Shown: positions 9,077 to 41,810 of the stretch, in pieces
Layout: each line of letters opens with the position of its first letter
How positions within the stretch are numbered: the first letter of the stretch is position 1
DNA from: an uncultured Planctomycetales bacterium
GTDB taxonomy: Bacteria; Omnitrophota; Gorgyraeia; Zapsychrales; Zapsychraceae
Reading direction: 5' to 3'
NCBI GenBank assembly: GCA_964348765.1
Contig: CAYGEE010000003.1
Location: 1-46,057 of the forward strand
DNA: 46,057 nucleotides
Made by a program: the position numbers and the translations under genes
Notes under the pieces: model-generated
What the model was told of the DNA's origin: nothing
Seen by the model: the letters and a program-made list of their open reading frames with translations, nothing else
Database searches by the model: none

Positions 9077-9233
9077 ATAGGGTCAAATAAGGCTATAAAG
9101 ATATAAAACAAGATTGTTATTTATATCAAATTTTATGACGGGTGTAAAGAATCTTCCCCCTTCTCTAATTCTTAAAAAATTACCGCTCCAGAAGACTCCC
9201 CGCCCCCCACAAAGAACACAATGGATAATTTAC

Positions 9234-9262
9234 TTGCGTTCATTTTTACCAAATGTTATAAA
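9234..9262 (+). promoter_or_regulatory. Candidate sigma70-type promoter for the plus-strand MBOAT operon
   Basis: TTGCGT (9234..9239), a 17-nt spacer, then TATAAA (9257..9262), about 70 nt upstream of ATG 9331. Sequence pattern only. Confidence 0.3.
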
Positions 9263-9330
9263 TAAAACCATTAAACAACACTAAATCTTCCTCCAACCTA
9301 TTGAAAAATAAAAGCTTACACTCGATATAA

Positions 9331-10719: not shown

Positions 10720-10728
10720 GAAACTCAT

Positions 10729-17070: not shown

Positions 17071-17072
17071 TC

Positions 17073-19763: not shown

Positions 19764-19774
19764 AAAAATACTCT

Positions 19775-20683: not shown

Positions 20684-20688
20684 GATTC

Positions 20689-21387: not shown

Positions 21388-21416
21388 TGTTTTTCTCTCT
21401 ATTAGGATTTTACGCT

Positions 21417-21495
21417 TGTGTCATTGCGAGCGCTTTTTGCGAAGCAATCTTTTAAAAAGATTGCTTCGGCCCAAAAACGGCCTCGCAAAGACACA
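21417..21495. repeat. Nested-palindrome repeat, copy 3 (short form)
   Basis: tgtgtcattgcgagcgctttttgcgaagcaatcttttaaaaagattgcttcggcccaaaaacggcctcgcaaagacaca. Confidence 0.9.
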
Positions 21496-21523
21496 GGACA
21501 ATATCCAAAAGTAAAAATCCCAT

Positions 21524-22579: not shown

Positions 22580-22581
22580 CT

Positions 22582-24482: not shown

Positions 24483-25781
24483 TTACGTCCTTCCCAATAA
24501 TCCGTGTTTAACAAGCATTTTTGCCGCATAACGTATCGCTTGAATATCCAATCCTGAACGCGTCGCGATATCTAAGAGCGAATTCTGTCCGTCAGAAAGA
24601 TTCAAAACCCAAAGAATGGCCGTTTGATCGATCTTCGCCTTCTTTTGACCGCCAATATTCCCATAAAGGCCTCTTCGTCCTAACTGAGGTTCTCCCTTAG
24701 GACTAAGATTAACAAAATACTCCTCTTTTTCAAATTGAGCCACAATATCCTGACAGATTTCTAAAGTTTCCGCAAGACTGTCCTCTGAGATAAAGTTCAG
24801 GTCATCAGCCGAGGTATGATATTCTGGAAATTCTCCGTAAACAGATCGGATCAGAGAACCTACCGGTAAATCAAACCCCGGAGAACAAAACTGCCGCTCA
24901 TCACTTCCCATCGGAAAAAATTCACGAACCTTAAAAGGCTTTTGTCTTTGCTCAAGGACTCTTTGGACAACCTTATCAACACGACTCTCCCCTCGCCGGC
25001 TTTTTTTATACGTGATCGATCCTCGATCTCCAACACAAGTTAAGACCAATCCCGCCTTGACCCGATCAAGACCTTTTTCATTTCTGCTTAACCAAGTAAT
25101 AGCCCCGATCGTCTCGGGAATAAAAAGGAATCGATAGCTCACATTTAATTTCTTCTTCAAAAGACTTTTCGCTAGAGACGCCGCGACAACAACGCCGCTT
25201 AAATTATCATTACACAACGACGGATGACAAGTATAACAAGTAAAAAGAACCTCCTCCTTACTTTTCCCCTTGATCAAAAGTTCGCCATAGGTTAAAGATC
25301 CCTTTTTATGCTCAGAATCGATCAGAACTTCATAATGATCTTCCGGCAATCGATCAAGCTGGTCCTGACTCAAACAAAAACCCCAATTCTTTTTATAATA
25401 AGACGTTAAATAAGGGATCCACTTCGGATGGTCCGGCAAGGTGAACAAATGCGGCTTCAATTCTTTCAAAGACATTTTCGCGCGGATAGCCGTGCTATAA
25501 TTTAAAACGTGCAAATTATTCTTCTTAAAATCAACAACCCGTTCTCCTCGAGAATTCTTAATATAGGCGTCTTTAATATTCCATTCATCCGGCACAACCC
25601 AATCTAAAACTTTCGTAGAAGAAGGCACTTCATGAACCGTAAGAGGAATGTGTTTTCTTAATATCCGCATCGATTCACGGACACCATCTCCGGTGATGCT
25701 TCTGCAAATAGGAAATAATTCTTTCATGAGAAAATACATCTGCGGCCCCGAAGAATTCTGTGTTTTCAAATTTCTTTTCAT
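24483..25781 (-). CDS. Aminopeptidase-like (M28-fold) DUF2172/DUF4910-type protein with C-terminal winged-helix-like tail
   Basis: LFPICRSITGDGVRES...EVPSSTKVLDWVVPDEWNI...NLHVLNYS matches my memory of this family. Start set to ATG 25781 (TAAAATG junction with the upstream stop) instead of the track's 25817. Confidence 0.55.
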   Translation of the reverse strand: MKRNLKTQNSSGPQMYFLMKELFPICRSITGDGVRESMRILRKHIPLTVHEVPSSTKVLDWVVPDEWNIKDAYIKNSRGERVVDFKKNNLHVLNYSTAIRAKMSLKELKPHLFTLPDHPKWIPYLTSYYKKNWGFCLSQDQLDRLPEDHYEVLIDSEHKKGSLTYGELLIKGKSKEEVLFTCYTCHPSLCNDNLSGVVVAASLAKSLLKKKLNVSYRFLFIPETIGAITWLSRNEKGLDRVKAGLVLTCVGDRGSITYKKSRRGESRVDKVVQRVLEQRQKPFKVREFFPMGSDERQFCSPGFDLPVGSLIRSVYGEFPEYHTSADDLNFISEDSLAETLEICQDIVAQFEKEEYFVNLSPKGEPQLGRRGLYGNIGGQKKAKIDQTAILWVLNLSDGQNSLLDIATRSGLDIQAIRYAAKMLVKHGLLGRT

Positions 25782-25782
25782 T

Positions 25783-26568
25783 TTAGATGGAACCTTTAAC
25801 AAGAAATGCTGGATCAACTTTCAATTGTTCCTTAATAAGATCAAACGTATCCCGCGCGCTTATTTGTAAAACTTGCCCTTTACCGAGATCCGCGCATTTT
25901 GCAAACGACAATTCCTTGGCTTTGGTATCAAATTTCACAAAGTCCGACGCATGCGAAGGCTTTTTAAGGTCATGAACAAAATGATAAAAAGTCCGAGAAC
26001 ACTCCTGCCCGTCGATAATGGAAACCCCTGGGAAAGCCTTATCAAAACGATACGGAACTTTTAACGTTTTCTCGCAAAAATGGATCAAAGTCGATCCGGA
26101 ATCAAAATTAAAATTACAGATCTTACCACCAGCCTCAAAAAACTTCGCCCAAAATGATCCCGGCCCGAAAGAATGCTCCGGAGCATCGCTGGTAAATTCC
26201 GTCGCCCGTTTCCCAATCGCGCTTACCGAGAAATTCGCATCATCAGAACGAATCGATTGCGGGTCTTTGCGAAAACTCTCCGACAAAAAACCGCAAACGC
26301 TCATGGTCATCTTCTTATCATAGATCTGCTTATTACAAAAACTATACGTAAAAACCGGCACAACAATCGTCCCGTCGGGACCTAAGACATTTAAGATCGC
26401 GGATTTAAATAAACGATAATACTCCTGCGGTGTCGCCGCATCCTTTAATTTCCCAAAAAATCCGATATTGCTGTGAATAAAAATACTGTCGCCTTTTACA
26501 AGACCAACTTTTTGAAGACTTTTCTCAATGTCTTCCTTCGTAAAATCATAACGATCATTTGCCGGCAT
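25783..26568 (-). CDS. AAC(3)-fold N-acyltransferase (aminoglycoside N3-acetyltransferase family). Likely a sugar N-acyltransferase here.
   Basis: DSIFIHSNIGFFG...GTIVVPVFTY...TLIHFCE pattern. ATG 26568 has GAAGGT about 8 nt upstream; the track start, TTG 26583, is less likely. Confidence 0.6.
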   Translation of the reverse strand: MPANDRYDFTKEDIEKSLQKVGLVKGDSIFIHSNIGFFGKLKDAATPQEYYRLFKSAILNVLGPDGTIVVPVFTYSFCNKQIYDKKMTMSVCGFLSESFRKDPQSIRSDDANFSVSAIGKRATEFTSDAPEHSFGPGSFWAKFFEAGGKICNFNFDSGSTLIHFCEKTLKVPYRFDKAFPGVSIIDGQECSRTFYHFVHDLKKPSHASDFVKFDTKAKELSFAKCADLGKGQVLQISARDTFDLIKEQLKVDPAFLVKGSI

Positions 26569-26833
26569 TGATCTTACCTTCAATAATCGCTGTTATCCCG
26601 TCAATAGTCGCGAAACTCCGGTCCTGAAATTCATCATTCGAAAAGCGGATATCAAACTTCTCCTCAATATTCGTAATAAGCGTGACAAAACTAAAAGAAT
26701 CGATCCAACCTTTTTCCAAATAATTGATCGTCACATTCTTTTGGATCTCATTTTCCAGAACATCTGAATTCTGCACGAACCAACCGATGATCCAGCTTTT
26801 CACATTCGTCATTATCTTTTCTTTCTCGGTCAT
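26555..26833 (-). CDS. Acyl/peptidyl carrier protein
   Basis: ~92 aa from ATG 26833; the track's GTG 26848 lies in the repeat edge. Phosphopantetheine-site motif GWIDSFSFVTLI (DSx). Confidence 0.75.
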   Translation of the reverse strand: MTEKEKIMTNVKSWIIGWFVQNSDVLENEIQKNVTINYLEKGWIDSFSFVTLITNIEEKFDIRFSNDEFQDRSFATIDGITAIIEGKINAGK

Positions 26834-26847
26834 CGTTAATCTTAACA

Positions 26848-26995
26848 CCGTGTGCGAATTATTAGCTTCTGTGTCATTGCGAGCGCTTTTTGCGAAGCAA
26901 TCTTATAGAATACTCTAAAAGATTGCTTCGTCGCCTTTTACATGAAAACTTTGAAGCTCCTCGCAATGACACAAAGAGAAAAAATCGTACACGGC
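26848..26995. repeat. Nested-palindrome repeat, copy 4 (long form; core 26870..26973)
   Basis: Begins immediately after the cyclase stop codon (TAA|TGCCGTGTACGA on the minus strand) and ends at the ACP start region. Confidence 0.9.
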
Positions 26996-26996
26996 A

Positions 26997-27653
26997 TTAA
27001 TCCTTATACAAGCAAACTCTCGCCGGAGCGCCGTCCGCGCCTTTTAAGCGAAGCGGCATAATGCTGATATTCCAATCCTTATAATCGGTCAGATCATTTA
27101 AATTCGCTAAATATTCCAAAAGAACGATCTCGGCTTTCAATAAGATCTTATGGATCTTAGAATCTTCGCTCGTCCCCATCTTCGTCCGACTATCGTCGGG
27201 TGACGGTGTATCCATCCCCAAAACCCGCACCCCTTTTTCAACAAAGAGCCTGGCAGCATCTTCTGTAAAAGCCGGATAGCTGTAATAAAATTTTTCTTTA
27301 TTCCCCCAGTATTTCCCCCAGCCGAATTTAAAGACCATCCGCTCTGTAAGTGTGATCCCTTTAAGCATCTGGGCTGTTACATTCTCATATTCTTTCATAA
27401 AAGAAAAGTCAACGATCGTCACCGGCCCGATGAGCTGCGACAACGGGATCCGTTCGATACTTTTACTCCCCTTTAAAAAATGCAGCGGCGCATCGATATG
27501 TGTTCCGGTATGCGTCCCGAATGTCACTTCACGGGTCTCGCGACCTTCCACTTCGATCCGCCCCATTTGTTTGATAGTCACTTTCGGATGCCACGGCGCG
27601 TGAAAGGTGAGCATTCCTTCTTCGATGTCATACGTCAGATCAACGATTTTCAT
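26997..27653 (-). CDS. Cyclase-family metal-dependent hydrolase (kynurenine formamidase-like)
   Basis: 218 aa. HTGTHIDAPLHF equals the HxGTHxDxPxH signature. AGGAA SD upstream. Flanked on both sides by repeat copies. Confidence 0.75.
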   Translation of the reverse strand: MKIVDLTYDIEEGMLTFHAPWHPKVTIKQMGRIEVEGRETREVTFGTHTGTHIDAPLHFLKGSKSIERIPLSQLIGPVTIVDFSFMKEYENVTAQMLKGITLTERMVFKFGWGKYWGNKEKFYYSYPAFTEDAARLFVEKGVRVLGMDTPSPDDSRTKMGTSEDSKIHKILLKAEIVLLEYLANLNDLTDYKDWNISIMPLRLKGADGAPARVCLYKD

Positions 27654-27704
27654 AAGAGTTCCTATTCTTTAAAAAGTTTAGAATTTTTGCGATTGAATCA
27701 TCTC

Positions 27705-27810
27705 TGTGTCATTGCGATCCGCCACGCTTTATGGCGGAGAAGCAATCTTTTAAAAGATTGCTTCGTCACTTCTGCCTGCCGACAAGCAGGCCGTTCCTCG
27801 CAAAGACACA
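27705..27810. repeat. Nested-palindrome repeat, copy 5 (variant with extra internal hairpins)
   Basis: tgtgtcattgcgatCCGCCAcgctttaTGGCGGagaagcaatcttttaaaagattgcttcgtcacttCTGCCTGCcgacaaGCAGGCcgttcctcgcaaagacaca. Confidence 0.85.
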
Positions 27811-27828
27811 ACCGCGAAATTCTTGGAA

Positions 27829-28509
27829 TTATTTTTTTTGGCAGCTAACTAGATGCCAGTGATAATCATACCCAAAACAATCGTCGTGAATGGATCCAAA
27901 AGTAAAATCTTTAAAATACGCTGAAAAAACTTTTTTGATCTCTTTCTCATCTTTGAACATCCGCAAAATAACACCATTGCGGATCTTAAACGGGTCATTA
28001 CGGATGATCTGATATCCTTTTCTAAACTGTTCACTGTCATGGTAAATAAAACATGTTTTTTTAGGGATCGACAAAACCAGCCGGCCGTTCTTTTTCAGAA
28101 TTCTTGCAAGCTCTTTAACGTGATCATTAAAATCTTTCGATCCTCCCATGTAATAACACGCATTCCATGAAAGCACATAATCGAAAGTCTCATCTTTAAA
28201 ATCAATAGCTTCATTCGTGCTGACTTTTATGTCAGAGGAAATCCCGACCCGCCGTAAATTATCCTGCGCTTTTTGAGCGATCTGTTTTGTGATCTCGGTG
28301 CCATAAACATCAAATCCGCATTGTTTTAAAAGGACCAGATTCCGCCCATCACCGCAGCCGACATCACAAATCTTCTTTCCGGTGAAAGGATCTTTTTTCA
28401 AATTAAGTCGCGGATACGATCCTTTAAAGATCCTGATCACATATTCCGCCGGAAAAGCCATTTGACTTGACAAGATCGACTGAGTCCATTTTTTCTTTTC
28501 ATTGATCAT
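27829..28509 (-). CDS. Class I SAM-dependent methyltransferase
   Basis: Motif I ICDVGCGDGRN. I prefer ATG 28509 (7 nt after the VOC stop) to the track's TTG 28536. The start is uncertain. Confidence 0.7.
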   Translation of the reverse strand: MINEKKKWTQSILSSQMAFPAEYVIRIFKGSYPRLNLKKDPFTGKKICDVGCGDGRNLVLLKQCGFDVYGTEITKQIAQKAQDNLRRVGISSDIKVSTNEAIDFKDETFDYVLSWNACYYMGGSKDFNDHVKELARILKKNGRLVLSIPKKTCFIYHDSEQFRKGYQIIRNDPFKIRNGVILRMFKDEKEIKKVFSAYFKDFTFGSIHDDCFGYDYHWHLVSCQKK

Positions 28510-28516
28510 AACAATA

Positions 28517-29275
28517 TCATCCTTTAGCGATCCCAATGATCTCGGCGCATTCCCCGCAAGGCCCTTGCGCGAAACACACTGATAATCTCTTTTGATTGAC
28601 CTTCAGTTCTTCGATCCCAGTCACAACAAAGCCCTGAGCTTCAAGATTTTCTTTCTCACGTTCAACCGCATTGCTGATAAACGCCAAACAATTAAACCCC
28701 TGATCATCCAAATAACTTAGAGAAGAATAAGACTTATCTGATTGCAGATAAATATACAGATCTGAAGGCGATATTAAAGAACGAAACTTCAAAATAACAC
28801 CATCAAGATCTTCGCTCGCAACTTGAAATCCAAAATTCTTCCAAAACTTAACACTGGCCTTGAGATCATTCGTCTTTAAAACGACTTTATTGAACTGGAA
28901 TTTCTCCGACTCTGTAAAATACATTTCACAGTCAAGGCTTAAACATAATGCCTTCTCAAACGACTGACCACATATTTTATGCCCAGATGTTGATTTTACA
29001 AAGTCTTTTGAAAAGTTCTCAACGATCGGCGTAAATGATCCATGCTGCTCATTAACATGCCCATGATCCAGGAGCTCAACGGCGAAGCTTCCCGGATTTC
29101 TCATCAAAACCATTGTCTGTTTTTGTGAAAACCGCCGCATCAAAGACCGCTTGATCAATGGATTAGAGATCTCCGCCTCAACAAATTGATCTTGGTATCC
29201 CCAACCTTTCAGAGATCGAACTTTCTTTTCAATGTCCGTACAAGCAAAAGCCACATGATCGATCTGAAGGATCAT
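28517..29275 (-). CDS. Two-domain VOC (glyoxalase/bleomycin-resistance/dioxygenase) superfamily protein
   Basis: 252 aa. N-terminal IDHVAFACTDIEK and a second beta-alpha-beta module (VVLKTNDLKASVKFW). ATGA overlap upstream. Confidence 0.6.
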   Translation of the reverse strand: MILQIDHVAFACTDIEKKVRSLKGWGYQDQFVEAEISNPLIKRSLMRRFSQKQTMVLMRNPGSFAVELLDHGHVNEQHGSFTPIVENFSKDFVKSTSGHKICGQSFEKALCLSLDCEMYFTESEKFQFNKVVLKTNDLKASVKFWKNFGFQVASEDLDGVILKFRSLISPSDLYIYLQSDKSYSSLSYLDDQGFNCLAFISNAVEREKENLEAQGFVVTGIEELKVNQKRLSVCFAQGPCGECAEIIGIAKG

Positions 29276-30762
29276 TTCTTGACCGATTGATAATTTTGTT
29301 TAATAGCGATCTTATCTACTTTTCCATTGCGATTTTTTGGAACCTGCGCTAAAGAAATGAACTCATCAATACAATAACTTCTTCCCCACTTTTGAATGAT
29401 AAGAGAATTGATCTCCTTTTTTTTCATCTGATCAAATCCGCCGTCTTTAGCAACATAAAAACAAACGATCTTTTCACCCAGCGTCGGGTCTTGAAGCCCC
29501 AAAACCACATACTCTTCAAAGATCCGGCACGATCCTAGAAAATCCTCGATCTTCCGAGGACTAATGTTAACCCCACCGCGAATGATAAGATCTTTTTTAC
29601 GACCCGTAATCAAAAGAAAACCATCCTCTTCAACGCCTAGATCACCGGAACAATACGATTTCCCTTTAAAATACTCCACACTGGAAATATTCGAATAACC
29701 CAAAAACATCCACGGAACATTGATCAGGATCTCTGCGTCAGAATCAAAGATCAGCTCAACTCCATTTAAACGCGGCCCCACACTTGAAGTCGCCGTCACA
29801 GCTTTCGGATAATTCGTTGAAACAAAAAGCGTTTCTGATAACCCATAACTTTCATAAAGCGCGATGTGATATTTCTGCTCAAATTCCCGGCGGACATCCC
29901 CGTATAAAGGCGCTGTCCCAATGCAGGCTGTTATAGGATTTTTCTTGGCATATTCGATCCCATTCGTCCCACGGTCAATACGATTAAGTAACGACACGAT
30001 CGTTGGAACGAACCAAAACGTGTTGACCTGATAACGGATCGGCTTATCCCAAAAATTCATAGCGTGATTAACATTAAAAGCTTCACTAAGAACAACCTTA
30101 CTCCCGGAAATAAAAGGCAGAACAAATAAATTCAATATCCCCGCCATATAACTCATCGGTAAATTGTGATAGAAAACATTCTTCCCGCTAAAATGAAAGC
30201 GTTCTCGAAAACTTTCCGCGCTCAAAACAAGATTCGAAAATGAATGCATGACTCCCTTAGCTACACCCGTCGAACCGGAAGTAAACGTGATCAAAAAAAG
30301 CTTCTGGTAATCGATATCATTAAAGATCTGCAATTGATCTTTATCAGATCCCTTGATCCCAACAAAACACTGCTTAAACTCATCAACATTAACCATCCGA
30401 TCAAGAGCGCTAAACTCACCTGCCGCGATAAGGAACTTATAATCTGCCTCGAATAAGACCTCATTGATCCCGTCTTCTCCTTTATTAGGATCGATCGGAA
30501 CAGCCACAGCTCCGGCGAGCAAACAAGAAAAATATAACGAACACAATTCCAGAGAGTTAGGTAAAAGAAAACAGATCTTATCTCCGGGAACAACGCCTTT
30601 GAGCTTAAGCACATCTTTTAACTGACAAATAATGCCAAAGAACTCTCCATAAGTCACACGGCGATCTGATAGAGAATCAAAAACAAAGATCTCATTCCAA
30701 TTGTCTTGGAATACTTTGATAACAAGCTCTGAGATCCTCGAATTATTTTTCATCTTGTTCAT
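29272..30762 (-). CDS. Adenylate-forming acyl/aminoacyl-carrier-protein ligase (AMP-dependent synthetase/ligase, ANL superfamily)
   Basis: 496 aa. TFTSGSTGVAKGV (A3), YGLSET (A5), SGDLG, GRKKDLIIRGGVNISPRKIE (A8), PKNRNGKVDK (A10). Confidence 0.85.
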   Translation of the reverse strand: MNKMKNNSRISELVIKVFQDNWNEIFVFDSLSDRRVTYGEFFGIICQLKDVLKLKGVVPGDKICFLLPNSLELCSLYFSCLLAGAVAVPIDPNKGEDGINEVLFEADYKFLIAAGEFSALDRMVNVDEFKQCFVGIKGSDKDQLQIFNDIDYQKLFLITFTSGSTGVAKGVMHSFSNLVLSAESFRERFHFSGKNVFYHNLPMSYMAGILNLFVLPFISGSKVVLSEAFNVNHAMNFWDKPIRYQVNTFWFVPTIVSLLNRIDRGTNGIEYAKKNPITACIGTAPLYGDVRREFEQKYHIALYESYGLSETLFVSTNYPKAVTATSSVGPRLNGVELIFDSDAEILINVPWMFLGYSNISSVEYFKGKSYCSGDLGVEEDGFLLITGRKKDLIIRGGVNISPRKIEDFLGSCRIFEEYVVLGLQDPTLGEKIVCFYVAKDGGFDQMKKKEINSLIIQKWGRSYCIDEFISLAQVPKNRNGKVDKIAIKQNYQSVKK

Positions 30763-31804
30763 GGCCTATATATCGATAAAATCCATATTTCCCCAGGCTC
30801 ACATTCTCCCCCTTGCCCAACCTCTGAGCAAGTTCATCAAGGACCTTTTCATCAATTCTTACTTTATCGATCTTGGTGATCTCCATAATAAGGACCGCAG
30901 GATTGACTTTATATTTTGCGGAATATTTTTGAATATAATGCATGTAACTTGAATGGAATTCCGAATAACCGCTGACGATGTCCAGCGGCATTTTCCCCTT
31001 CACATCAATAAGCGGCTGAATATATTTTTGACCAGCCTCCAAAAGTTTCAGAAAATCAACTTTGATCTCATACCCTTGTTTGCTCAGCGCCGCGGTCAAT
31101 ATTTCCGTCGCGGCATTGCCGGAGCTTCTGCCCATCCCCTGCAAAGAAGAATCAACAAATCTGACTCCCAATCGCGCGGCCTCCAAACTATTAGCGATGG
31201 CAAGGCCGAGATTATCATGCCCGTGAAAACCGATCGGAAGCTTCGAGACTTTTCTGATCGCTTCAAAATAACTTCGAACATCATCCGGGAACATCCCTCC
31301 GGCGGAATCAACAATATAGACCATATCAACGCCATAACTCTCGGCGATCTTCGCTTTTTCGGCAAATTTATCCGGCGGAAGCGCGTAAGATTTCATAAAA
31401 TTTGACGCAACGAACATCCCATACTTTTTCGCTTTCTTGACAAATTCCTTTGAGGACTCTACATTCGCCACATCCGTCCCAACGCGGATAAATTTCATAT
31501 TATGATCCGCCGCCAAGTCCACATCTTCAAGACGAGCGATCCCCGGAATACAAAACATCCCATATTTCGCTTTCGTCAGCACCGATTCCGCCGCGATCAT
31601 ATATTCTTCATCCGTCTGAGCCGCCTGCCCGTGGCCTTTATTACTGGCATTTAATCCAACGCCGTGGCCGATCTCAATATATTCAAAGCCAGCGGACTCT
31701 AATTCCTTACAAATAATGGACGTGTCTGCCGACGTGAATGAAAAATTAACGGCGTAACTCCCATCGCGCAATGTTACTTCGAGGATTTCGATCTTTTTTT
31801 CCAT
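30743..31804 (-). CDS. HMGL-like aldolase (4-hydroxy-2-oxovalerate aldolase / pyruvate carboxyltransferase family)
   Basis: 353 aa. EVTLRDGSY and metal site FHGHDNLGLAIAN. AAGGA SD upstream of ATG 31804. Confidence 0.75.
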   Translation of the reverse strand: MEKKIEILEVTLRDGSYAVNFSFTSADTSIICKELESAGFEYIEIGHGVGLNASNKGHGQAAQTDEEYMIAAESVLTKAKYGMFCIPGIARLEDVDLAADHNMKFIRVGTDVANVESSKEFVKKAKKYGMFVASNFMKSYALPPDKFAEKAKIAESYGVDMVYIVDSAGGMFPDDVRSYFEAIRKVSKLPIGFHGHDNLGLAIANSLEAARLGVRFVDSSLQGMGRSSGNAATEILTAALSKQGYEIKVDFLKLLEAGQKYIQPLIDVKGKMPLDIVSGYSEFHSSYMHYIQKYSAKYKVNPAVLIMEITKIDKVRIDEKVLDELAQRLGKGENVSLGKYGFYRYIGHEQDEK

Positions 31805-31831: not shown

Positions 31832-34342
31832 TTAATTGGAATGGAACAGATCAATAACATTTTCACTCCCAAAATCCCTTCGATATCTTTCGTTCGCATT
31901 TTTCATCGCTTCTTTTTTACTTTTCCCATTGTTTAATTCATCGAATACAGTCTTAACATATTGACCTAACCGACGATAAGACTTGCCATCCCTGTAAGGA
32001 TCGATCTGATCTAAAAACGGGGAATAATCAGCAAACCCTTGAGTGTCTTTGGAGTGATCACGAAATTTCCGGATCTCGGACATTAACGATGCGGCATCAT
32101 CAAAAACGACCGTTCCTCGTCCTTGTTTATAAAGGGAATGAAAATCCATTCTTCCATAATTGACCGTAACCGTCGGGATCCCGGCAAGCGCGGCTTCGAG
32201 TGCTGCCGTATTAAAAATATAAAATCCAACAACCAGATCAGAGATCTTAGCCGCTGCGCTAGGAAGGATCTTCTCATCCAAAAAAACACACCGCCCGGTT
32301 CGCTCGGCTTTTTCGATCAGATCCTTAATATCAGCCAACTCCTTCGAATAATAATTCTTTCGTTTTGGTTTAATAACCATTCCTAACGTAGGATCAGCCT
32401 CTAACTCTTTTAACAAAGCATGATAAATATCTTCAAATTCCTTTTTCACAAAACAATCGTGCGGATTATAAACTTCGTCAAAAAAACAAATAATGAAATT
32501 CACCCCCTTAGATCTAAGATCTTTTTGAATATCCTGAAGCCTCGCATCCGTTTTCTTAAACGCGTGATCATGCGGATATCCCAAATAAAGCAAATGGTCG
32601 ATCGAATAATAATCACGTTCAAAAAGCCTTCGATATGCCGGACCCCACGCAAAATAAGCATCGAACGGCTTCCCATGCCCGACCCAAAGTTCGGGATAAT
32701 TCGACCAATTATGACTAATATTAACCGCCCCGGCTAAACTAGCACCCAAGTTGGATGCTGTTAATTGCTCTCCATCCAGTAATGATAAATGGACCTTCAC
32801 TTTTTGATCCGTAAAAACAGCCTCATAAAAACAAATGTGATATAACAATCCCGCTAAATGCTGTAACTCCCATATTCTCGTCGATTTCAAACCAGAAAAG
32901 ATCGCTCCGACGGATAATTTAAGAACCTCAATACAAATGCCACCAAGTGATTTCACATACGACCAAGATGCATAAACATACAATTCAGGCGATCCCAAAC
33001 CTAAGAACTTTTTACTAAATCGCTTGGGGATCAGATCGATCCAATCAATATGATAACTTCTTAAAAGAGCATCGATCTCTGAGGTGATTGGCCGGTAAGG
33101 AACACGCGCGTAAACCAACATTTCTTCCGGTTTCAATCCAGAATCCGGATACCAAAAGAAATCAGATTTCCCATTGAGATCCACGCCCTGAACATAAAGC
33201 ACAGCAACTTTCGATTGCGAACTTTGCTTCTTCCGTTTACCGACGATCATCTTCCAAAAAGATCCCGCGAGATTTACAAAGAACGCAACGACGATCCGGA
33301 TCAGATGAAAGAACAATGTGAACCAACTTTTCACATTCGGATAAAAAGACAATTCCACTTTTTTATAAAACGATCTTTGAACATATTTCGCCCAAGCATA
33401 ATTTCGGGTCAAAATAATATTCCCTAAAGTCCCCGGCATCTTTTGACGCTGAGTCCACTCCAGTGTTTTAGCCAAAGTCGTCAGCCCCCGAACCTCATGA
33501 TAGATCACCTGCTGTAAATAGATCCTTACGGCTTTCTTACCGAGATCATATTTTTGACTTAACCAATCAACCAAACTATCCTGAAAATACCCTTCGGCAA
33601 CGACCGCGAAAGATGCATCCTCAGCGTCAGAATATTTTTTCCAAAAAGGAACAGCTTTCTCATTAACAAGTCCGGACATCTTTTTATAATCAGCAAGCTC
33701 CAAACGGAATTTTATATTCACCCGAAACAATGAGATCAAAACTTTTCCCATCGCCGTTATTGTCAAATACTTAATACACGTGATCTTTCGTTCTCTTCCC
33801 AATAAGAAGATCCACAACAAGGAGAATATGCCCAGATCATCAACCCAACAAGTATATGCTGTTTCAGGTCGAGAATCTGCCGGTGAACTCAGCTCAAGGA
33901 CAAGACAATCCGCTCCTTGGATATTTAATTCAGAGATCGTTTGAAAACCTGCTTTTTCAAAAAGCCGTATAGAAGCCTCATTGCCTTTTTTGATCTGCGC
34001 GCGGATCTTTTTAATGGGTGCATTTTGAAAAACAAAGGCGCACATTTTTGTTAAACCCTCGCCTGCAAACCCTTGCGAACGTTTTTCCGGGGAAATAGAA
34101 ATACTCACAAGCGCGCTAGATTCACTATCAAAGTCAAATCTAAGTTGACCGACGGAAACGTCATCGCTAAGCAAAATAAATATCCAACATTTCGGATCAC
34201 TTAATTTTCGCGTAAACCATTGTAAATGGTCTTCAAAGACAATGATCTCTTTGTTAAGAGAATTTTCCCGGGATTGCGGATCATTTCTCCAATGAAAGAT
34301 ATCCCGAGCATCTTTTTCTGTCGCACGTCGAAATGACAGCAT
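31832..34342 (-). CDS. Fusion protein: N-terminal PseH-like GNAT N-acetyltransferase (~150 aa) plus a ~650-aa uncharacterised GT-B-like domain
   Basis: 836 aa, a single frame with no internal stop. N-terminus FRRATEKDARDIFHWRNDP...RSQGFAGEGL...LFEKAGF is GNAT/PseH-like. The C-terminal part shows NISHNW and LVVGFYIFNTAALEAALAGIPTV (nucleotide-sugar GT-B-like). TAATG junction with pseI. Confidence 0.6.
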   Translation of the reverse strand: MLSFRRATEKDARDIFHWRNDPQSRENSLNKEIIVFEDHLQWFTRKLSDPKCWIFILLSDDVSVGQLRFDFDSESSALVSISISPEKRSQGFAGEGLTKMCAFVFQNAPIKKIRAQIKKGNEASIRLFEKAGFQTISELNIQGADCLVLELSSPADSRPETAYTCWVDDLGIFSLLWIFLLGRERKITCIKYLTITAMGKVLISLFRVNIKFRLELADYKKMSGLVNEKAVPFWKKYSDAEDASFAVVAEGYFQDSLVDWLSQKYDLGKKAVRIYLQQVIYHEVRGLTTLAKTLEWTQRQKMPGTLGNIILTRNYAWAKYVQRSFYKKVELSFYPNVKSWFTLFFHLIRIVVAFFVNLAGSFWKMIVGKRKKQSSQSKVAVLYVQGVDLNGKSDFFWYPDSGLKPEEMLVYARVPYRPITSEIDALLRSYHIDWIDLIPKRFSKKFLGLGSPELYVYASWSYVKSLGGICIEVLKLSVGAIFSGLKSTRIWELQHLAGLLYHICFYEAVFTDQKVKVHLSLLDGEQLTASNLGASLAGAVNISHNWSNYPELWVGHGKPFDAYFAWGPAYRRLFERDYYSIDHLLYLGYPHDHAFKKTDARLQDIQKDLRSKGVNFIICFFDEVYNPHDCFVKKEFEDIYHALLKELEADPTLGMVIKPKRKNYYSKELADIKDLIEKAERTGRCVFLDEKILPSAAAKISDLVVGFYIFNTAALEAALAGIPTVTVNYGRMDFHSLYKQGRGTVVFDDAASLMSEIRKFRDHSKDTQGFADYSPFLDQIDPYRDGKSYRRLGQYVKTVFDELNNGKSKKEAMKNANERYRRDFGSENVIDLFHSN

Positions 34343-35388
34343 TAAACATCCCCTTGACGGATCGGATGATCCTGTAAAATACTTCTTTTCGCTTTCTTCC
34401 CAAGGATCTGATCGTAATAAACCGGATCAAGTCCGGGCTTTAATATCCCGTTCCTTAATATCTCAATGTCATCTTTTGTTATGATCTGACCCTTCGTGAT
34501 TACTCTAATGGCAAAAAGAGATCTGCGAGCGAAACTTCGCAAATCTTTTTCAACCGAATGAAAATCTTTTTTCCCTGTTCCTAAAACTTTCTCAACATCA
34601 CGGATCTTTTGAACCATCAATTTCAATTCATGCGGCTCGATTGCATATTTATGATCCGGACCCGACAAACCATTGGAAAGCGTAAAATGTTTTTCAATAC
34701 AACAGGCACCCACCGCGACAGCCGCCATCGGAGCGACATCATAAGCCCTCGAATGATCAGAAAGCCCGACGGGCAAATGAAATTCTTTTTTCATCGTTTG
34801 GATCGTATTAATATTGATCGATTCCAACGGGGCGGGATAGCATGCAGTGCACTGCATTAAGATCAGATCCCTATTCCCAACGGCTCTGATCGCTTGAACT
34901 GTTTTCCCAACTTCATCTAAATGAGCCGTGCCCGTCGATAAAATAATCGGCTTGCCTTTCTTGGCAACATGCTCAACTAACGGAATATCCGTCATCTCAT
35001 AAGAGGAGATCTTAAAAAGCGGCATATGTTTCTCAAGAATATCAGCGGAATCATTATCAAAAGGCGTCGATAAGAACATGATCTTCTTTTTCTTGCAGTA
35101 TTGCGCAAGTTTCGGGATCCACTCGACGGGCATTTCCATATCTTTAATGATCTCATAGATCGATTTCTTATCTTTTAAATACCGAGCATGCCCTGCCTTT
35201 TTGGTATAGATCTTATGTGCTTTGAATGTTTGGAATTTAACCGCATCCGCTTTCGCATCAGAAGCCACATCAATAAGAGCCAATGCCTGTTTAAAGTCTC
35301 CATCATGATTACTTCCCGCCTCGGCGATCACAAAACAAGGCGCGCCATCACCGATGAAACGTTTTCCGATCTTGATCTTCATAGTCAT
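34342..35388 (-). CDS. pseI: Pseudaminic acid synthase (NeuB family nonulosonate synthase with C-terminal SAF domain)
   Basis: 348 aa. FVIAEAGSNHDGDFKQALALIDVA...AVKFQTF. Specificity is inferred from the adjacent pseG/pseH/pseB/pseC. Confidence 0.75.
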   Translation of the reverse strand: MTMKIKIGKRFIGDGAPCFVIAEAGSNHDGDFKQALALIDVASDAKADAVKFQTFKAHKIYTKKAGHARYLKDKKSIYEIIKDMEMPVEWIPKLAQYCKKKKIMFLSTPFDNDSADILEKHMPLFKISSYEMTDIPLVEHVAKKGKPIILSTGTAHLDEVGKTVQAIRAVGNRDLILMQCTACYPAPLESININTIQTMKKEFHLPVGLSDHSRAYDVAPMAAVAVGACCIEKHFTLSNGLSGPDHKYAIEPHELKLMVQKIRDVEKVLGTGKKDFHSVEKDLRSFARRSLFAIRVITKGQIITKDDIEILRNGILKPGLDPVYYDQILGKKAKRSILQDHPIRQGDV

Positions 35389-35391
35389 CTC

Positions 35392-36420
35392 TTATGAAAT
35401 TGATCCCACTGTTTTAATAACTTTAGAAACACCTGCGCCATCACAGACCCCGGAAGAAACTTGGCTCATTTGTGCCAATTGAACGTCTGTTAACGAAACA
35501 AGGATCTTTGCCAACTGCTCTTTGCTGGTATCCCGAAACCATCCGGCATTGATCGCCGCGCCTGTCTTGGCCAAACTATCAACAACACCCCGCTGATTCT
35601 CCGCGATCGGCATTAAAACCATCGGCAGCTTCATCGTCGCCATTTCCCAACTGACAGAGCCGCCCGAACCGATCGCAAGATCCGCACATAGCATCACATC
35701 CGCCAAATGATCAAGGTCCTGATGGATCACAACATCCCTACCGCTATTTTTCACTTCCTGTTCCAATGATCTACGATGCGGATATGCTCCTCCGATCACG
35801 ATCTGAATTTTAATCGAACGTCTTAAAGAACAAGCCGCATGAAAAACTTTTAATGTCTGATTATCTTGATCACCGCCGCCCATAAAGATCAAGACATTGC
35901 TCAATTCTTTCCGGATCAACGCATTCTGCCGGCGCTGTTGATAAATCTTGCGGACCAATGCATATTGAGGACCTAGCAATTGAACTGTCTTGGGCAGGCA
36001 CTCATATTTCAGATCTAACGCATGAATATTCTGATTCAATAAAATATTAACCGGAAATCTTGTGTGATTAATGTCATCGATCGCCAAGATCTTTACAGAA
36101 TGTTTCCCTAAAAAGGAATAATAATCCTCCTTGATCCCATAATGATCCACAATGATCCATTGCGGCTTTCTCTCTTTGATCAATGATCCAACAAAAATCT
36201 TCTCCTGCTCAAACGGTTCGATCTTAGGGATCAAAACAAACCCGCACCCCGCATCCTTGATCCGTTTGACCAGCACATTATTAAGTTCGCGACACAAAAA
36301 AACAACGTCATAACCTTCCAACTTTAATTCCTGCGCCAATGTCAATGAACGGAGGATATGCCCAATACCGATCGCCGTTGATCCGTCGGCACGGACAAAG
36401 ACCAAAGGATCCCTTTTCAC
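35392..36420 (-). CDS. pseG: UDP-2,4-diacetamido-2,4,6-trideoxy-beta-L-altropyranose hydrolase
   Basis: 342 aa. FVRADGSTAIGIGHILRSLTLAQEL and FMGGGDQDN are hallmarks of PseG. GTG start in a GTGA overlap with the upstream stop. Confidence 0.8.
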   Translation of the reverse strand: MKRDPLVFVRADGSTAIGIGHILRSLTLAQELKLEGYDVVFLCRELNNVLVKRIKDAGCGFVLIPKIEPFEQEKIFVGSLIKERKPQWIIVDHYGIKEDYYSFLGKHSVKILAIDDINHTRFPVNILLNQNIHALDLKYECLPKTVQLLGPQYALVRKIYQQRRQNALIRKELSNVLIFMGGGDQDNQTLKVFHAACSLRRSIKIQIVIGGAYPHRRSLEQEVKNSGRDVVIHQDLDHLADVMLCADLAIGSGGSVSWEMATMKLPMVLMPIAENQRGVVDSLAKTGAAINAGWFRDTSKEQLAKILVSLTDVQLAQMSQVSSGVCDGAGVSKVIKTVGSIS

Positions 36421-37205
36421 TTTAAACCCCGATGGCTTTCTTTACTACTTCGCTGCTTGATCATACAATTTATTTCAAATAATTCGGGCCACTTTTTCAG
36501 CAGACCAATGATCTCTCTTAAAAAGAAATCATGTTTGCCTCGGTATAATTCCCGATAAACCTCTTTAAGGAATTGATAATCTTCCGGAGTATCCAAAGTA
36601 AAACGCAAGTGAGAATAATTTTCCTTATTTTTTAAATAGTAAATATCTTTTTTGTAATGTTCATAAATAAATGGGGTCACATGCTCGTGCTGGTAAGGTT
36701 TTTTAGCTTTCCGGAATGCGTTTTGAAGGACATCATATCCAAAAACCTCCGCATCGAATCCCCACGGATACCCGCACTCCATTTTCTTCGGCCCGCTGTT
36801 AGTGGCAAGAGGAACATTATGATCTTTAAAATATCGGATAATGTCGTCAATAACATACGGATCAATACACGGACTGTCCCCGGAAACGCGAACGATCGAC
36901 CCACAGGAAAAAAGCTCCGAAGCATCCGCAAAACGCTTCAAAACATCTTCCTCGCTACCCCGAAAACATTTGACACGGATATTCTGACAAAGACGCTCAA
37001 TGGGATCGTTTCGTTTATCTGTCCCTGTTGTCACGACGATCTCATTGATCATTCTCGACAACCGCAGCCGTTCGACAATGTGCTCAAGAACAGGCTTATC
37101 GATCAAATTCTTGACAACTTTCCCCGGCAGCCGGCGCGAGCCGATCCGCGCCTGGATAAGGCAGAGAACATTTTCTTTACTTCGCGTCAGAGGCATCACC
37201 ATCAC
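36417..37205 (-). CDS. pseF: SpsF/PseF-type cytidylyltransferase (probable CMP-pseudaminic acid synthetase)
   Basis: LIQARIGSRRLPGKV signature. Possible starts are GTG 37205, ATG 37202 and ATG 37196 (AGGTGA upstream of the last). Confidence 0.6.
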   Translation of the reverse strand: MMVMPLTRSKENVLCLIQARIGSRRLPGKVVKNLIDKPVLEHIVERLRLSRMINEIVVTTGTDKRNDPIERLCQNIRVKCFRGSEEDVLKRFADASELFSCGSIVRVSGDSPCIDPYVIDDIIRYFKDHNVPLATNSGPKKMECGYPWGFDAEVFGYDVLQNAFRKAKKPYQHEHVTPFIYEHYKKDIYYLKNKENYSHLRFTLDTPEDYQFLKEVYRELYRGKHDFFLREIIGLLKKWPELFEINCMIKQRSSKESHRGLK

Positions 37206-37211
37206 CTATTC

Positions 37212-37979
37212 TTAAGCCTTTGTGATCTTTGCCCACATCCAATTGAAAATAATATTCCCATCGACCTGCTTACCGCCAAGGATCCTGGTTCCCAATCCTT
37301 TTTTAAGTGTCGTATATTCTTTTTCAAGGATTCCCAGATTGAACTCATCTTCAATGAATTCCACTTTCCAACCTAAGCTCTCAACATATTTGCTGAACAG
37401 CTTCTTCGACCACGTATTTTGAAAAGCAAAATTGATCGGTTCACCTTTCTCATCGAGATCAGAATCAATCGTTTTACGAACGATCGTCGTAAAGTCCTCA
37501 AAAAGAGTGCGGATAAAACACACCTTTTTGGTGCTTTCTAAGAGATTTTTTACCGGCGGGCGAAAATCCGGAAGATGCACGAGGACATTGCAGGAATAAA
37601 CAATATCAAATGGTTTTTCCGGAAAAAGCGGTTGAAAAATATCTTTCACTGCAAAATGTGCTAATGGATCATCTTTATAAATTTCCTTAGCCTTACTGAT
37701 ATACGATTCATACGCGTCGATCCCTGTATAATTCAATTTAGGATCCAAACGTCTTAATCCGCGCAGATAATGCCCGACATTACACCCGGCATCCAAAACA
37801 CGCATTCCCGGTTTATAATATCCACTGACAAGTTTAACCAATTGTTTTGTACTTTCCATCTCAGGGAGTTTCGCCTGAGCGCGCTGCACAAGTGTGCCTT
37901 CCGCTTCCGGCTTGTCCGCCCAAATTTGCCAACGTTCGATCTTTTTCTGATTTGACTGTTTGTCCAATACCTTACTCAT
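37212..37979 (-). CDS. Class I SAM-dependent methyltransferase
   Basis: Motif I VLDAGCNVGHY. Start reset to ATG 37979, which has AAGGAGG 5 nt upstream. The track start, 38012, overlaps the upstream gene. Confidence 0.75.
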   Translation of the reverse strand: MSKVLDKQSNQKKIERWQIWADKPEAEGTLVQRAQAKLPEMESTKQLVKLVSGYYKPGMRVLDAGCNVGHYLRGLRRLDPKLNYTGIDAYESYISKAKEIYKDDPLAHFAVKDIFQPLFPEKPFDIVYSCNVLVHLPDFRPPVKNLLESTKKVCFIRTLFEDFTTIVRKTIDSDLDEKGEPINFAFQNTWSKKLFSKYVESLGWKVEFIEDEFNLGILEKEYTTLKKGLGTRILGGKQVDGNIIFNWMWAKITKA

Positions 37980-37996
37980 GGATCCTCCTTGATCGT

Positions 37997-38767
37997 TTAA
38001 CTGATAGTCCATCCGCCGTCGATCACCAAATTCTGCCCGGTCATATAACTCGAGGCCTGACTTGCCAAGAAGACAACCGCTCCTTTGAGATCATCGGGAT
38101 GTCCAATACGTTTTAGTGGAATCTTTGATAATAACTTCTTAACGAATTCTTTATTCTGTTTACGCTCCGCGGGAAATGCTCCTGGAGAAATACAATTCAC
38201 ACGGATATTCTGCCCGGCTAAAAAATTCGCGTAATAACGCGTCAACTGGATCACGCCGGCCTTCGCCACACCATAATTCGGCGGATTAAAATATTGCGGA
38301 TGATCCTCGTAGATCTTAAAATCCGGAACAACAACCCCATACATCGAAGAGATATTAATGATCGATGCCGATCGAGATCTTTTCATGTGAGGGATCACCT
38401 CACGGACACAGCGAAAAACGCTGTTCAAAGTCCCGTCGATCCCAAGAGCCCATTCCTCATCGCTCATAACATCCGGAAAATTCCCGGCGGAATAAAATGC
38501 GTTATTGACAAGAACATCGAGCGATCGATATTTCGTAACAATCTGTTTAAACCCACTCTTTATCGACGCCGTCGAAGAAATGTCGATCTCTTCAAAGAAC
38601 ACATCCTTTTTTTTCGACCCAAAAACCCTCGCAAACTCTGTCTTCTTACGGCCGGCGACGATCACTTTAGCGCCAGTTTCCAATAATCCCAGTGACAACG
38701 CTTGCCCTAAATGTCCATAGCCTCCTGTGACAACTGCGACTTTCCCTTTAAGATCGAAACTTTTCAT
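37997..38767 (-). CDS. Short-chain dehydrogenase/reductase (FabG-like)
   Basis: GKVAVVTGGYGHLGQA, NNAF, and YGVAK catalytic Tyr/Lys. Start reset to ATG 38767 (MKSFDLKGK), 4 nt after the upstream stop. Confidence 0.8.
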   Translation of the reverse strand: MKSFDLKGKVAVVTGGYGHLGQALSLGLLETGAKVIVAGRKKTEFARVFGSKKKDVFFEEIDISSTASIKSGFKQIVTKYRSLDVLVNNAFYSAGNFPDVMSDEEWALGIDGTLNSVFRCVREVIPHMKRSRSASIINISSMYGVVVPDFKIYEDHPQYFNPPNYGVAKAGVIQLTRYYANFLAGQNIRVNCISPGAFPAERKQNKEFVKKLLSKIPLKRIGHPDDLKGAVVFLASQASSYMTGQNLVIDGGWTIS

Positions 38768-38771
38768 GATT

Positions 38772-40807: not shown

Positions 40808-40809
40808 AT

Positions 40810-41781: not shown

Positions 41782-41810
41782 CGTTATTTCCTCTCTGATC
41801 ATTACAACTG

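Follow-up and report, generated by a model that had tools for sequence, protein, structure and literature searches.

A conserved eight-gene cassette next to a pseudaminic acid operon and its proposed role in nonulosonate N-acylation

The genetic and enzymatic basis of N-acyl diversity among nonulosonates (NulOs) is still largely unexplained, and in 2017 the enzymes that modify these sugars were termed a major challenge (PMC5378307). The locus described here bears on that question. It lies on a 46,057-nucleotide stretch (hereafter the window) from an uncultured Planctomycetales bacterium (Omnitrophota in GTDB; assembly GCA_964348765.1, contig CAYGEE010000003.1), in which eight co-directional minus-strand genes at 24483-31804 directly follow the pseF-G-I-H genes of a pseudaminic acid (Pse) operon. 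They encode an aldolase, an adenylating ligase, a VOC protein, a methyltransferase, a cyclase-family hydrolase, an acyl carrier protein (ACP), an AAC(3)-fold acyltransferase and a DUF4910 protein, and an earlier reading of the letters alone (the original prediction) had taken them for an ACP-dependent acyl-tailoring module. Do these genes belong together, and what would they add to a nonulosonate? The eight genes are one conserved biosynthetic cassette and not a chance juxtaposition. Judged from sequence, the cassette probably swaps an N-acetyl group of Pse for a larger, pyruvate-derived acyl group.

Conservation and layout of the cassette

One-genome-per-species collections were searched with acyltransferase and aldolase queries, and 116 loci were retrieved. 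The core order ligase-VOC-cyclase-ACP-acyltransferase recurs at 40-70% identity in more than 50 species-level genomes of Archaea and at least 10 bacterial phyla, with the methyltransferase inserted at varying points, the aldolase mostly first or last and the DUF4910 gene at either end. When overlapping loci were merged, aldolase, ligase and cyclase were found together in 56 genomes, of which 49 also have the ACP, 46 the acyltransferase, 44 the VOC protein, 41 the DUF4910 protein and 29 the methyltransferase, the last two being the least constant members. Seven cassette genes are present in 32 genomes and all eight in 19. Relatives of the aldolase were detected in 252 species genomes.

Archaeal carriers include Methanobacterium ferruginis (a cultured organism with a complete genome), Methanoregula, Methanosarcinales, Micrarchaeota and Woesearchaeota. 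Among bacteria, the cassette occurs in several phyla of the candidate phyla radiation (CPR), Babeliales, Saprospiraceae, Bacteroidales, Ignavibacteriales, Lachnospiraceae, Oscillospiraceae, Lentisphaerota/Victivallales, Alpha-, Gamma- and Deltaproteobacteria, Nitrospinota, Elusimicrobia and others. De novo clustering of open reading frames (ORFs) in the first 34 non-redundant loci revealed no further conserved partners besides nonulosonate genes.

Such near-identical order in dozens of unrelated genomes places the arrangement far beyond chance. Every domain, taken alone, has well-known housekeeping family members, and the locus could be imagined as two or more separate gene groups that came to lie side by side, such as a DmpG-type aldolase of catabolism grouped with glyoxalase and hydrolase genes and, next to them, a Dlt-like ligase/ACP pair. 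This is a most improbable explanation, effectively refuted by the synteny survey, in which linkage and order are kept in more than 50 genomes of both domains. The aldolases also share a private signature (RDG[SG]Y, in 74 of 74 cassette aldolases), the ligase gene lies within 6 kb of the aldolase gene in 66 of the 74 loci, and neither a DmpF partner nor DltA/DltC orthology was found, as set out below.

With regard to the window itself, all genes from 13250 to 45937 lie on the minus strand and are packed tightly in the ORF map. Pfam searches of the eight ORFs returned every domain type that the original prediction had listed, each in its assigned place, and the genes upstream are also those it had named: the cytidylyltransferase is of the CTP_transf_3 type and is accompanied by PseG, a synthase of the NeuB family and a PseH-like GNAT, with PseC and PseB at a greater distance. 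On a sister contig (L011; 37 kb, 99.99% identical), gene calls made independently shorten four cassette starts, to 28509 for the methyltransferase (226 aa), 26833 for the ACP (92 aa), 26568 for the acyltransferase (261 aa) and 25781 for the DUF4910 protein (432 aa). The translational coupling claimed for all eight genes holds at five of the seven junctions and fails at two repeat-filled gaps beside the cyclase gene; in cassette order, the overlaps (-) and gaps (+) are -20, -4, +7, +175, about +160 (+163), -14 and +1 nt.

Both large gaps contain a copy of a palindromic repeat resembling a miniature inverted-repeat transposable element (MITE). Four intergenic copies were detected in the window (6950-7125, 21405-21500, 26845-27020 and 27654-27828), with terminal inverted repeats TGTGTCATTGCGAG and CTCGCAATGACACA and an inner palindrome GAAGCAATCTTTT..AAAAGATTGCTTC. 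Since the copy at 27654-27828 is missing from the nearly identical sister contig, it represents a recent insertion within the operon. The core motif of the repeat occurs mostly in metagenome-assembled genomes (MAGs) of Omnitrophota, and MAGs of Planctomycetales contain the longest matches (77% over 137 nt), a hint of a host in the PVC group. The whole window gave zero matches when scanned with Rfam.

Putative acid-supply enzymes and the VOC protein

The aldolase matches Pfam HMGL-like (1e-41) and DmpG_comm; it passes NF006049 (300.6, cut-off 229) and does not reach the equivalog TIGR03217 (273, cut-off 286). It scores about 184 bits against DmpG (PDB 1nvm) and has the fold, the communication domain and the metal ligands (D14, H194 and H196) in common with DmpG and BphI. 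On the other hand, it differs from these members of the DmpFG/BphIJ systems in its biosynthetic context, in the absence of an acylating aldehyde dehydrogenase partner and in a reciprocally swapped catalytic pair, in which DmpG His21 corresponds to Tyr17 and DmpG Tyr291 to His284. Tyr occupies the His21 position in all cassette aldolases, and His the Tyr291 position in all 20 aligned sequences. In addition, F84-C85-I86 aligns to an LLL stretch of DmpG that precedes a conserved PGI; the corresponding leucines of BphI presumably help to line the substrate pocket. Pfam and NCBIfam searches of the window ORFs detected no DmpF-type aldehyde dehydrogenase, and a catabolic DmpFG reading was rejected on this absence together with the His/Tyr swap and the linkage to the ligase. 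It is proposed from family membership that the aldolase makes a 4-hydroxy-2-oxo acid from pyruvate and an aldehyde.

The ligase carries AMP-binding (2e-46) and C-terminal domains in Pfam, and an alignment of 96 sequences shows conservation of motifs A3, A5, A8 and A10 (GK). In NCBIfam it stays under every equivalog cut-off, also those of its best models, which are of the fatty-acyl-, malonyl- and oxalyl-CoA synthetase types. The nearest solved structures, malonyl-CoA synthetase MatB and oxalyl-CoA synthetase, hint at a small polar acid as the putative substrate.

The cyclase-family protein matches PF04199 (1.5e-29) and falls short of the arylformamidase equivalog TIGR03035 (82, cut-off 223). 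It has structural matches to PDB 1r61, 8hmo and KynB, its binuclear-metal motif HxGTHxDAPxHF is conserved in 84 aligned sequences, and it is co-inherited with the aldolase and the ligase in the surveyed loci. The methyltransferase belongs to Methyltransf_11/25/23 in Pfam, matches no NCBIfam equivalog, and is predicted to provide an optional tailoring step.

The VOC protein shows a weak Glyoxalase_4 match (4e-6) and only 21 bits against GloA (cut-off 165). A direct sequence search of the PDB returned no relative; a profile built from 33 homologs retrieved glyoxalase I and methylmalonyl-CoA epimerase, weakly (E about 2e-4). Foldseek matched the AlphaFold2 model (predicted local distance difference test score 75, predicted template-modelling score 0.77) best to human GLOD4 (TMq 0.63) and to the two-domain glyoxalase I of maize. 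Model and alignment together reveal paired beta-alpha-beta-beta-beta modules with conserved metal-type ligands, and H7, K42, E67, D190 and E245 are invariant in 33 aligned sequences. An exhaustive search counted 835 clusters at 50% identity (E<=1e-10) in this family; word-indexed homolog searching had recovered just 2 and then 5 proteins.

An O2-dependent dioxygenase role like that of 4-hydroxyphenylpyruvate dioxygenase, i.e., oxidative decarboxylation to 3-hydroxybutyrate, was considered for this protein and set aside, as strict anaerobes (e.g., Methanobacterium, Methanoregula, Lachnospiraceae and Desulfovibrio) are among the carriers; the role is also disfavoured by the closest resemblances in fold and profile, which are to glyoxalase I, GLOD4 and methylmalonyl-CoA epimerase. 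Because the cassette is present in strict anaerobes, a non-oxidative role is preferred, and the modelled fold faintly suggests that the protein might act as an isomerase or epimerase on an enol(ate) or thioester intermediate.

Proposed acyl transfer and the nonulosonate setting

The stand-alone ACP has a weak PP-binding match in Pfam (8e-4; 20.1 against a threshold of 20.8), and at least 90% of 68 aligned sequences keep its DS motif with the phosphopantetheine serine. Its best NCBIfam model is DltC, with scores of 36.1 (cut-off 68) and 34.6 (cut-off 52). The cassette resembles the Dlt system in that an adenylating ligase and a small DltC-like carrier would serve surface-polymer acylation, with MBOAT genes sometimes adjacent. 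It differs in that the DltC cut-off is not reached, the ligase is not DltA-like and the transferase in the window is a cytoplasmic AAC(3)-fold N-acyltransferase. Dlt orthology, which had been named as a possible refutation of the module, was rejected on these scores and on the nearest structures of the ligase, among whose top matches there is no DltA model.

The acyltransferase, whose gene is overlapped by that of the ACP by 14 nt, belongs to Antibiotic_NAT (PF02522, 3.6e-28) and has 47 invariant residues in 9 sequences. It lies far under the cut-offs of the AAC(3) resistance equivalogs (64.9, cut-off 270; 49.5, cut-off 420), and is proposed to be an acyl-ACP:amino-sugar transferase. The last protein of the cassette comprises three domains, DUF4910, DUF2172 and HTH_47 (1.4e-110, 1.3e-40 and 1.9e-27), and aligns over residues 6-428 with CA_C2195 (PDB 3k9t; E 1.7e-163) at about 60% identity over the full length. 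This family has at least 8000 relatives, and its closest members show unusual conservation: identity is about 56-64% in the top 120, which include archaeal as well as bacterial proteins.

The genetic evidence for this family comes from Campylobacter jejuni NCTC 11168, in which Cj1295 (DUF4910) is required for Pse with a 2,3-di-O-methylglyceroyl N-acyl group at N5; Hitchen et al. hypothesised that it strips the C5 acetyl (PMC3068675). In 2026, cj1295 was still named a putative transferase (PMC13130089). The parallel with C. jejuni that the original prediction had drawn was confirmed for Cj1295 and Cj1296/7 (PMC3068675): in both systems a DUF4910/DUF2172 protein adjoins an AAC(3)-like N-acetyltransferase in a pse locus. 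Genes for an ACP and a methyltransferase are neighbours of the C. jejuni pair. A literature search by gene name on Cj1296, Cj1298, Cj1299, Cj1300 and Cj1307 returned nothing. The difference lies in the acid supply, which in the window consists of aldolase, cyclase and ligase. C. jejuni is not known to have a DmpG-like aldolase or cyclase-family gene, and its acyl acid would be glycerate-derived (FkbH/HAD logic).

Variant loci give a broader view of how acyl groups may be passed from ACP to amine. Antibiotic_NAT is fused to DUF4910 in some homologs (P0011, P0109 and L017). In one fusion-bearing locus (L222; ENA ERZ27248922, close in number to ERZ27247828 of the window; 2494-11094), NeuB and a PseH-like GNAT are followed by DUF218, holo-ACP synthase, FkbH, a 239-aa ORF, a 79-aa ACP-sized ORF, an 81-aa VOC protein, a methyltransferase and the NAT-DUF4910 fusion; in another (L221), holo-ACP synthase, an AMP-ligase and a GNAT precede the fusion. 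Babeliales and Prochlorococcus possess a reduced set (divergent ligase, ACP, NAT and DUF4910) embedded in pse genes. From these fusions, variants and reduced sets, the general architecture is deduced to be a loader (FkbH or ligase), an ACP, an optional methyltransferase and/or VOC protein, and NAT/DUF4910, and the cassette in the window is the variant whose loader branch is aldolase, cyclase and ligase. FkbH-type loading of glyceryl-ACP is used in methoxymalonyl-ACP and tetronate pathways, and L222 probably follows a glyceroyl/O-methylglyceroyl route like the one inferred for C. jejuni. It shares with the window the downstream logic (a phosphopantetheinyl transferase, an ACP-sized ORF, VOC, methyltransferase and NAT-DUF4910 fusion, near NeuB and PseH); it differs in that FkbH, drawing its acid from a glycolytic intermediate, replaces aldolase and ligase, and in lacking the cyclase.

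A related neighbourhood, CA_C2186-2199 of Clostridium acetobutylicum, contains NeuB, a cytidylyltransferase, a glyoxalase, an ACP and amino-sugar N-acetyltransferases; its published table is without aldolase, cyclase or AMP-ligase and has an N-acetyltransferase-HAD fusion and an ATP-grasp ligase instead (PMC4000134). Neighbours of the aldolase and cyclase types do appear in the supplement of the same paper, for Nitrosopumilus maritimus, Grimontia and Vibrio, and go unmentioned in its text (PMC4000134). The original prediction had set aldolase, VOC protein and cyclase apart from the C. jejuni genes. The VOC protein is not peculiar to the window variant, because VOC genes also accompany FkbH in the variant of that type and are present in the neighbourhoods described for C. 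acetobutylicum and Aeromonas (PMC4000134); the distinguishing part is the trio of aldolase, cyclase and ligase. Systems of this kind are already known, and the variant with this trio is new and widespread.

Some cassettes have acquired further genes. In Methanoregula, a methyltransferase and a B12-binding radical S-adenosylmethionine (SAM) enzyme are inserted, and class I/II aminotransferases are inserted in cassettes of Methanobacterium, a B. thetaiotaomicron MAG, Woesearchaeota, Babeliales and others; the loci with such inserts include L041 (13658-16925), L013 (8126-9064), L116 (11675-12847), L046, L054, L024 and L029. These variants imply C-methylated or 2-amino versions of the acyl group, and the inserts are consistent with a 2-oxo acid intermediate that is tailored in each lineage.

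Two further systems offer analogies. In the butirosin pathway (BtrI/BtrJ/BtrH), an acid is assembled while tethered to its own ACP and is then passed to an amino group of an aminoglycoside; the loader is of the ATP-grasp type and the acid comes from glutamate. The likeness to the cassette is functional only, namely acyl assembly on an ACP and transfer to a sugar amine. The second analogy is chemical only. The Treponema denticola flagellin glycan is described as a Pse-type nonulosonate with a 2-methoxy-4,5,6-trihydroxy-hexanoyl group (PMC13439194, citing Kurniyati 2017). Its 2-oxy-3-deoxy-4-hydroxy acyl skeleton equals a pyruvate aldolase product after C2 reduction and O-methylation. Enzymes of these types are found in the window, with aldolase and methyltransferase in the cassette, and an aldo-keto reductase (AKR) and a short-chain dehydrogenase/reductase (SDR) upstream. 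The spirochaete entries of the 2014 DUF4910 survey are from Leptospira only, not T. denticola.

Does the cassette keep company with nonulosonate genes elsewhere? The flanks were tested in 24 non-redundant loci that extend for 5 kb or more to either side of the cassette. PseB/C/I-type genes lie within 10 kb in 18 of them and a NeuB-family synthase in 15, in agreement with the expected link between the module and nonulosonate genes. In Anaerosporobacter mobilis DSM 15930, the cassette sits inside a pse operon, between pseB and pseF-I-H-C-G, and in M. ferruginis it is directly upstream of pseB-C-F-H-I. Recurrent neighbours are CMP-transferases, PseA/HisH/HisF-type acetamidino genes and GT52 sialyltransferase-like genes, the last of which flank the cassette in Lachnospiraceae. 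The NAT-DUF4910 fusions, the holo-ACP synthase and loader genes beside them, and the GT52 neighbours all support an ACP-dependent N-acyl module, as originally predicted.

In the window, PseB (TIGR03589, 500, cut-off 408), PseC (TIGR03588, 497, cut-off 423) and PseG (TIGR03590, 244, cut-off 153.5) exceed their NCBIfam equivalog cut-offs, so the operon is a genuine pseudaminic acid operon. The NulO synthase scores 372 with the NeuB model (cut-off 400) and 312 with the PseI model (cut-off 340), the PseH-like GNAT 57 with the PseH model (cut-off 93), and the cytidylyltransferase (CTP_transf_3) is matched at family level only. This operon presumably supplies the acceptor for the cassette. Three genes between pseC and pseF (37212-39659, minus strand) encode the AKR, the SDR (gluconate-5-dehydrogenase/KduD/FabG-like) and a second methyltransferase, which may carry out extra tailoring (reduction and methylation) of the aldolase product on this contig. 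Among the first 34 related loci, the second methyltransferase has no match, and the AKR/SDR matches are weak (25-34% identity; L014, L017, L029 and L033).

Proposed route, neighbouring genes and meaning

A general scheme of loader, ACP, tailoring and N-acyl transfer is held with somewhat better than even confidence; its observed basis comprises the domains identified, their conserved motifs, the gene fusions, the synteny and the frequent proximity to Pse genes. Briefly, the orphan DmpG-like class II aldolase would condense pyruvate with a small aldehyde to yield a 4-hydroxy-2-oxo (2-keto-3-deoxy) acid, as its family membership suggests. This acid would be processed by the cyclase-family metallohydrolase and, where present, the methyltransferase, with possible further reduction at C2 by the AKR and SDR encoded upstream on this contig. 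The acyl-AMP ligase would then activate the acid and load it onto the dedicated ACP, where the VOC protein might act on the acyl thioester, most plausibly by a proton transfer of the glyoxalase I or methylmalonyl-CoA epimerase type. Finally, the AAC(3)-fold transferase and the DUF4910 protein would move the acyl group from the phosphopantetheine arm of the ACP to an amino group of a Pse intermediate, a step suggested by the gene fusions, the synteny and the C. jejuni Cj1295 phenotype. N5 would be the likeliest target because the PseH N-acetyltransferase is present to acetylate the other amine; this route would need the GlcNAc-derived acetyl to be removed, for which the DUF4910 protein is a candidate. 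The outcome would be CMP-Pse with a non-acetyl N-acyl group, displayed on a surface glycan.

Several observations weigh against this scheme. The roles given to the VOC protein and the cyclase are guesses, and the conserved set contains neither a reductase nor an aminotransferase that would set the final oxidation state of the acid. No phosphopantetheinyl transferase domain was detected by Pfam among the 44 window ORFs scanned, which did not include short ORFs. The authors of the CA_C2195 structure noted that the canonical M28 catalytic residues are missing in DUF4910 (PMC4000134), which weakens the deacetylase idea. In Nitrosopumilus sp. GCA_025699125.1 (L220, 10001-11311), DUF4910 occurs in a NeuB/DegT/CMP-transferase cluster with several methyltransferases, and no Antibiotic_NAT, ACP or ligase lies within 10 kb of it; DUF4910 may therefore act independently of the ACP system. 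In addition, Pse-type genes are missing from the 10 kb around the cassette in 6 of the 24 well-flanked loci, and in two Oscillospiraceae (L025 and L028) the cassette adjoins an arginine operon, apart from sugar genes.

Two alternatives draw on these exceptions. The same chemistry may serve an acceptor other than a nonulosonate, either another amino sugar or polymer of the 46-kb glycan island or an extracytoplasmic glycan that an MBOAT would O-acylate in a Dlt-like relay. Besides the loci lacking Pse-type genes and the preference of the ACP for the DltC model, this explanation can draw on other sugar genes in the window (a second cytidylyltransferase set, epimerases, an aminotransferase and ribitol-phosphate-like genes), on the MBOAT at 9331-10719 and on MBOAT homologs, which are present in about eight loci overall and come directly after the cassette in L016, L018 and L019. 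However, an MBOAT is present in about 10% of loci only, and that of the window lies 14 kb off on the other strand, whereas the overlapping ACP and acyltransferase genes form the most constant pair. Moreover, Pse/NeuB genes are by far the commonest neighbours, and the one genetic result for the family, that on Cj1295, is about the N-acylation of Pse (PMC3068675). A different acceptor is an unlikely explanation.

The Oscillospiraceae loci, in which the cassette is bordered by an ion channel/ABC transporter on one side and the arg operon on the other, suit a self-contained small-molecule pathway (an N-acylated metabolite or detoxification) that accompanies surface-glycan islands only through the horizontal mobility of both, as does a wide and patchy distribution resembling that left by horizontal gene transfer. 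Such a pathway is improbable. The cassette lies between pse genes in unrelated lineages (L003, L013, L014, L033 and L105), no conserved export or regulatory genes were detected by the ORF clustering of the first 34 loci, AAC(3)-fold enzymes use amino-sugar amines, and DUF4910 is genetically tied to a Pse glycoform.

In the literature searched, no paper was found that pairs 4-hydroxy-2-oxovalerate aldolase with nonulosonate terms or describes the aldolase, cyclase and ligase variant, and SugarBase and the Clostridium Pse paper contained nothing relevant to the cassette. The chemistry and product put forward here, which appear moderately probable as the likeliest scheme, have no earlier description in that literature. 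A wider reading is tentative, and rather unlikely to hold in full: the cassette may represent a widespread, previously unrecognised aldol route to a new class of nonulosonate N-acyl groups (of 2-keto-3-deoxy or 3-deoxy-aldonoyl type, optionally O-methylated, akin to the orphan T. denticola group), used by Archaea (methanogens, DPANN and Thaumarchaeota) and many bacterial phyla, with NAT-DUF4910 as the long-sought general acyl-exchange machine behind the N5/N7 diversity of pseudaminic and legionaminic acids.

Table 1. Coordinates of the cassette, the upstream operon and two repeat copies in the window
Feature	Coordinates	Strand	Evidence
Class II pyruvate aldolase, DmpG/BphI-like subfamily, 353 aa	30743..31804	-	Pfam HMGL-like + DmpG_comm
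Acyl-AMP-forming ligase, 496 aa	29272..30762	-	Pfam AMP-binding + AMP-binding_C
Two-domain VOC (glyoxalase-fold) metalloprotein, 252 aa	28517..29275	-	Weak Glyoxalase_4, AlphaFold2 model
Class I SAM methyltransferase, 226 aa	27829..28509 (ORF open to 28536)	-	Methyltransf_11/25/23
Cyclase-family (kynurenine-formamidase fold) metal-dependent hydrolase, 218 aa	26997..27653	-	PF04199
Stand-alone ACP, 92 aa	26555..26833 (ORF to 26848)	-	Weak PP-binding
AAC(3)-fold N-acyltransferase, 261 aa	25783..26568 (ORF to 26583)	-	Antibiotic_NAT
DUF4910/DUF2172/HTH_47 protein, 432 aa	24483..25781 (ORF to 25817)	-	Pfam 1e-110
Upstream pse operon: PseB, PseC, AKR, SDR, methyltransferase, CMP-transferase, PseG, NulO synthase, PseH fusion	31832..41802	-	
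MITE-like palindromic repeat in cyclase-ACP gap	26845..27020	+	
Inverted copy of MITE-like repeat, between methyltransferase and cyclase genes	27654..27828	-	

Other genes of the window surround the cassette (coordinates of the main features are given in Table 1). The PseH-like GNAT occupies only the first ~140 aa of an 836-aa protein (31832-34342, minus strand), the ~700-aa C-terminal part of which has a faint glycosyltransferase-like match (Glyco_trans_1_2; BFO_1060 family, 22 bits) and could be a candidate fused Pse transferase. Downstream of the cassette (13838-24477, minus strand) are two polytopic membrane proteins without a Pfam match (631 aa, ~8 transmembrane segments; 717 aa, ~14), two zinc-dependent alcohol dehydrogenases, a ribulose-phosphate 3-epimerase, a xylose-isomerase-like TIM protein, two nucleotidyltransferases and a GT2-GtrA fusion; these genes look like a pathway for ribitol/pentitol-phosphate or a similar polymer. 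The 631-aa and 836-aa proteins were compared with the LIC12162-like neighbour of the Nitrosopumilus DUF4910 and are not homologous to it.

On the plus strand, 9331-11913 encodes the MBOAT followed by a 394-aa protein with a single transmembrane segment. Homologs of this MBOAT (33-46% identical) adjoin the cassette in about eight other genomes, including L057, L088, L093 and L103 besides the three loci already named, and a Dlt-like second outlet for the acyl-ACP is a possibility there. The region 1110-6925 (minus strand) contains two CTP_transf_3 cytidylyltransferase-like genes, an epimerase/dehydratase, a methyltransferase, a GFO/IDH/MocA oxidoreductase and a class I/II aminotransferase, which suggests a second ulosonic or amino-sugar pathway on the contig. 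The aminotransferase (1110-2177) is 26-31% identical to those inserted in cassettes and was excluded as a module member.

Taken as a unit, the eight genes form a discrete and portable cassette, verified in at least 50 genomes and recognisable by the signature of its aldolase. Cultured strains are among the carriers (Anaerosporobacter mobilis DSM 15930, M. ferruginis NBRC 105197, Oceanospirillum sediminis D5, Roseobacter sp. SK209-2-6, Fusibacter sp. 3D3 and Nitrosopumilus maritimus SCM1), so that its product can be tested directly, as can the functions of the DUF4910 protein, the AAC(3)-fold transferase and the VOC protein. The cassette further leads to the prediction that methanogens, DPANN and CPR organisms, and gut Lachnospiraceae would bear unusual sialic-acid-like sugars on their surfaces.

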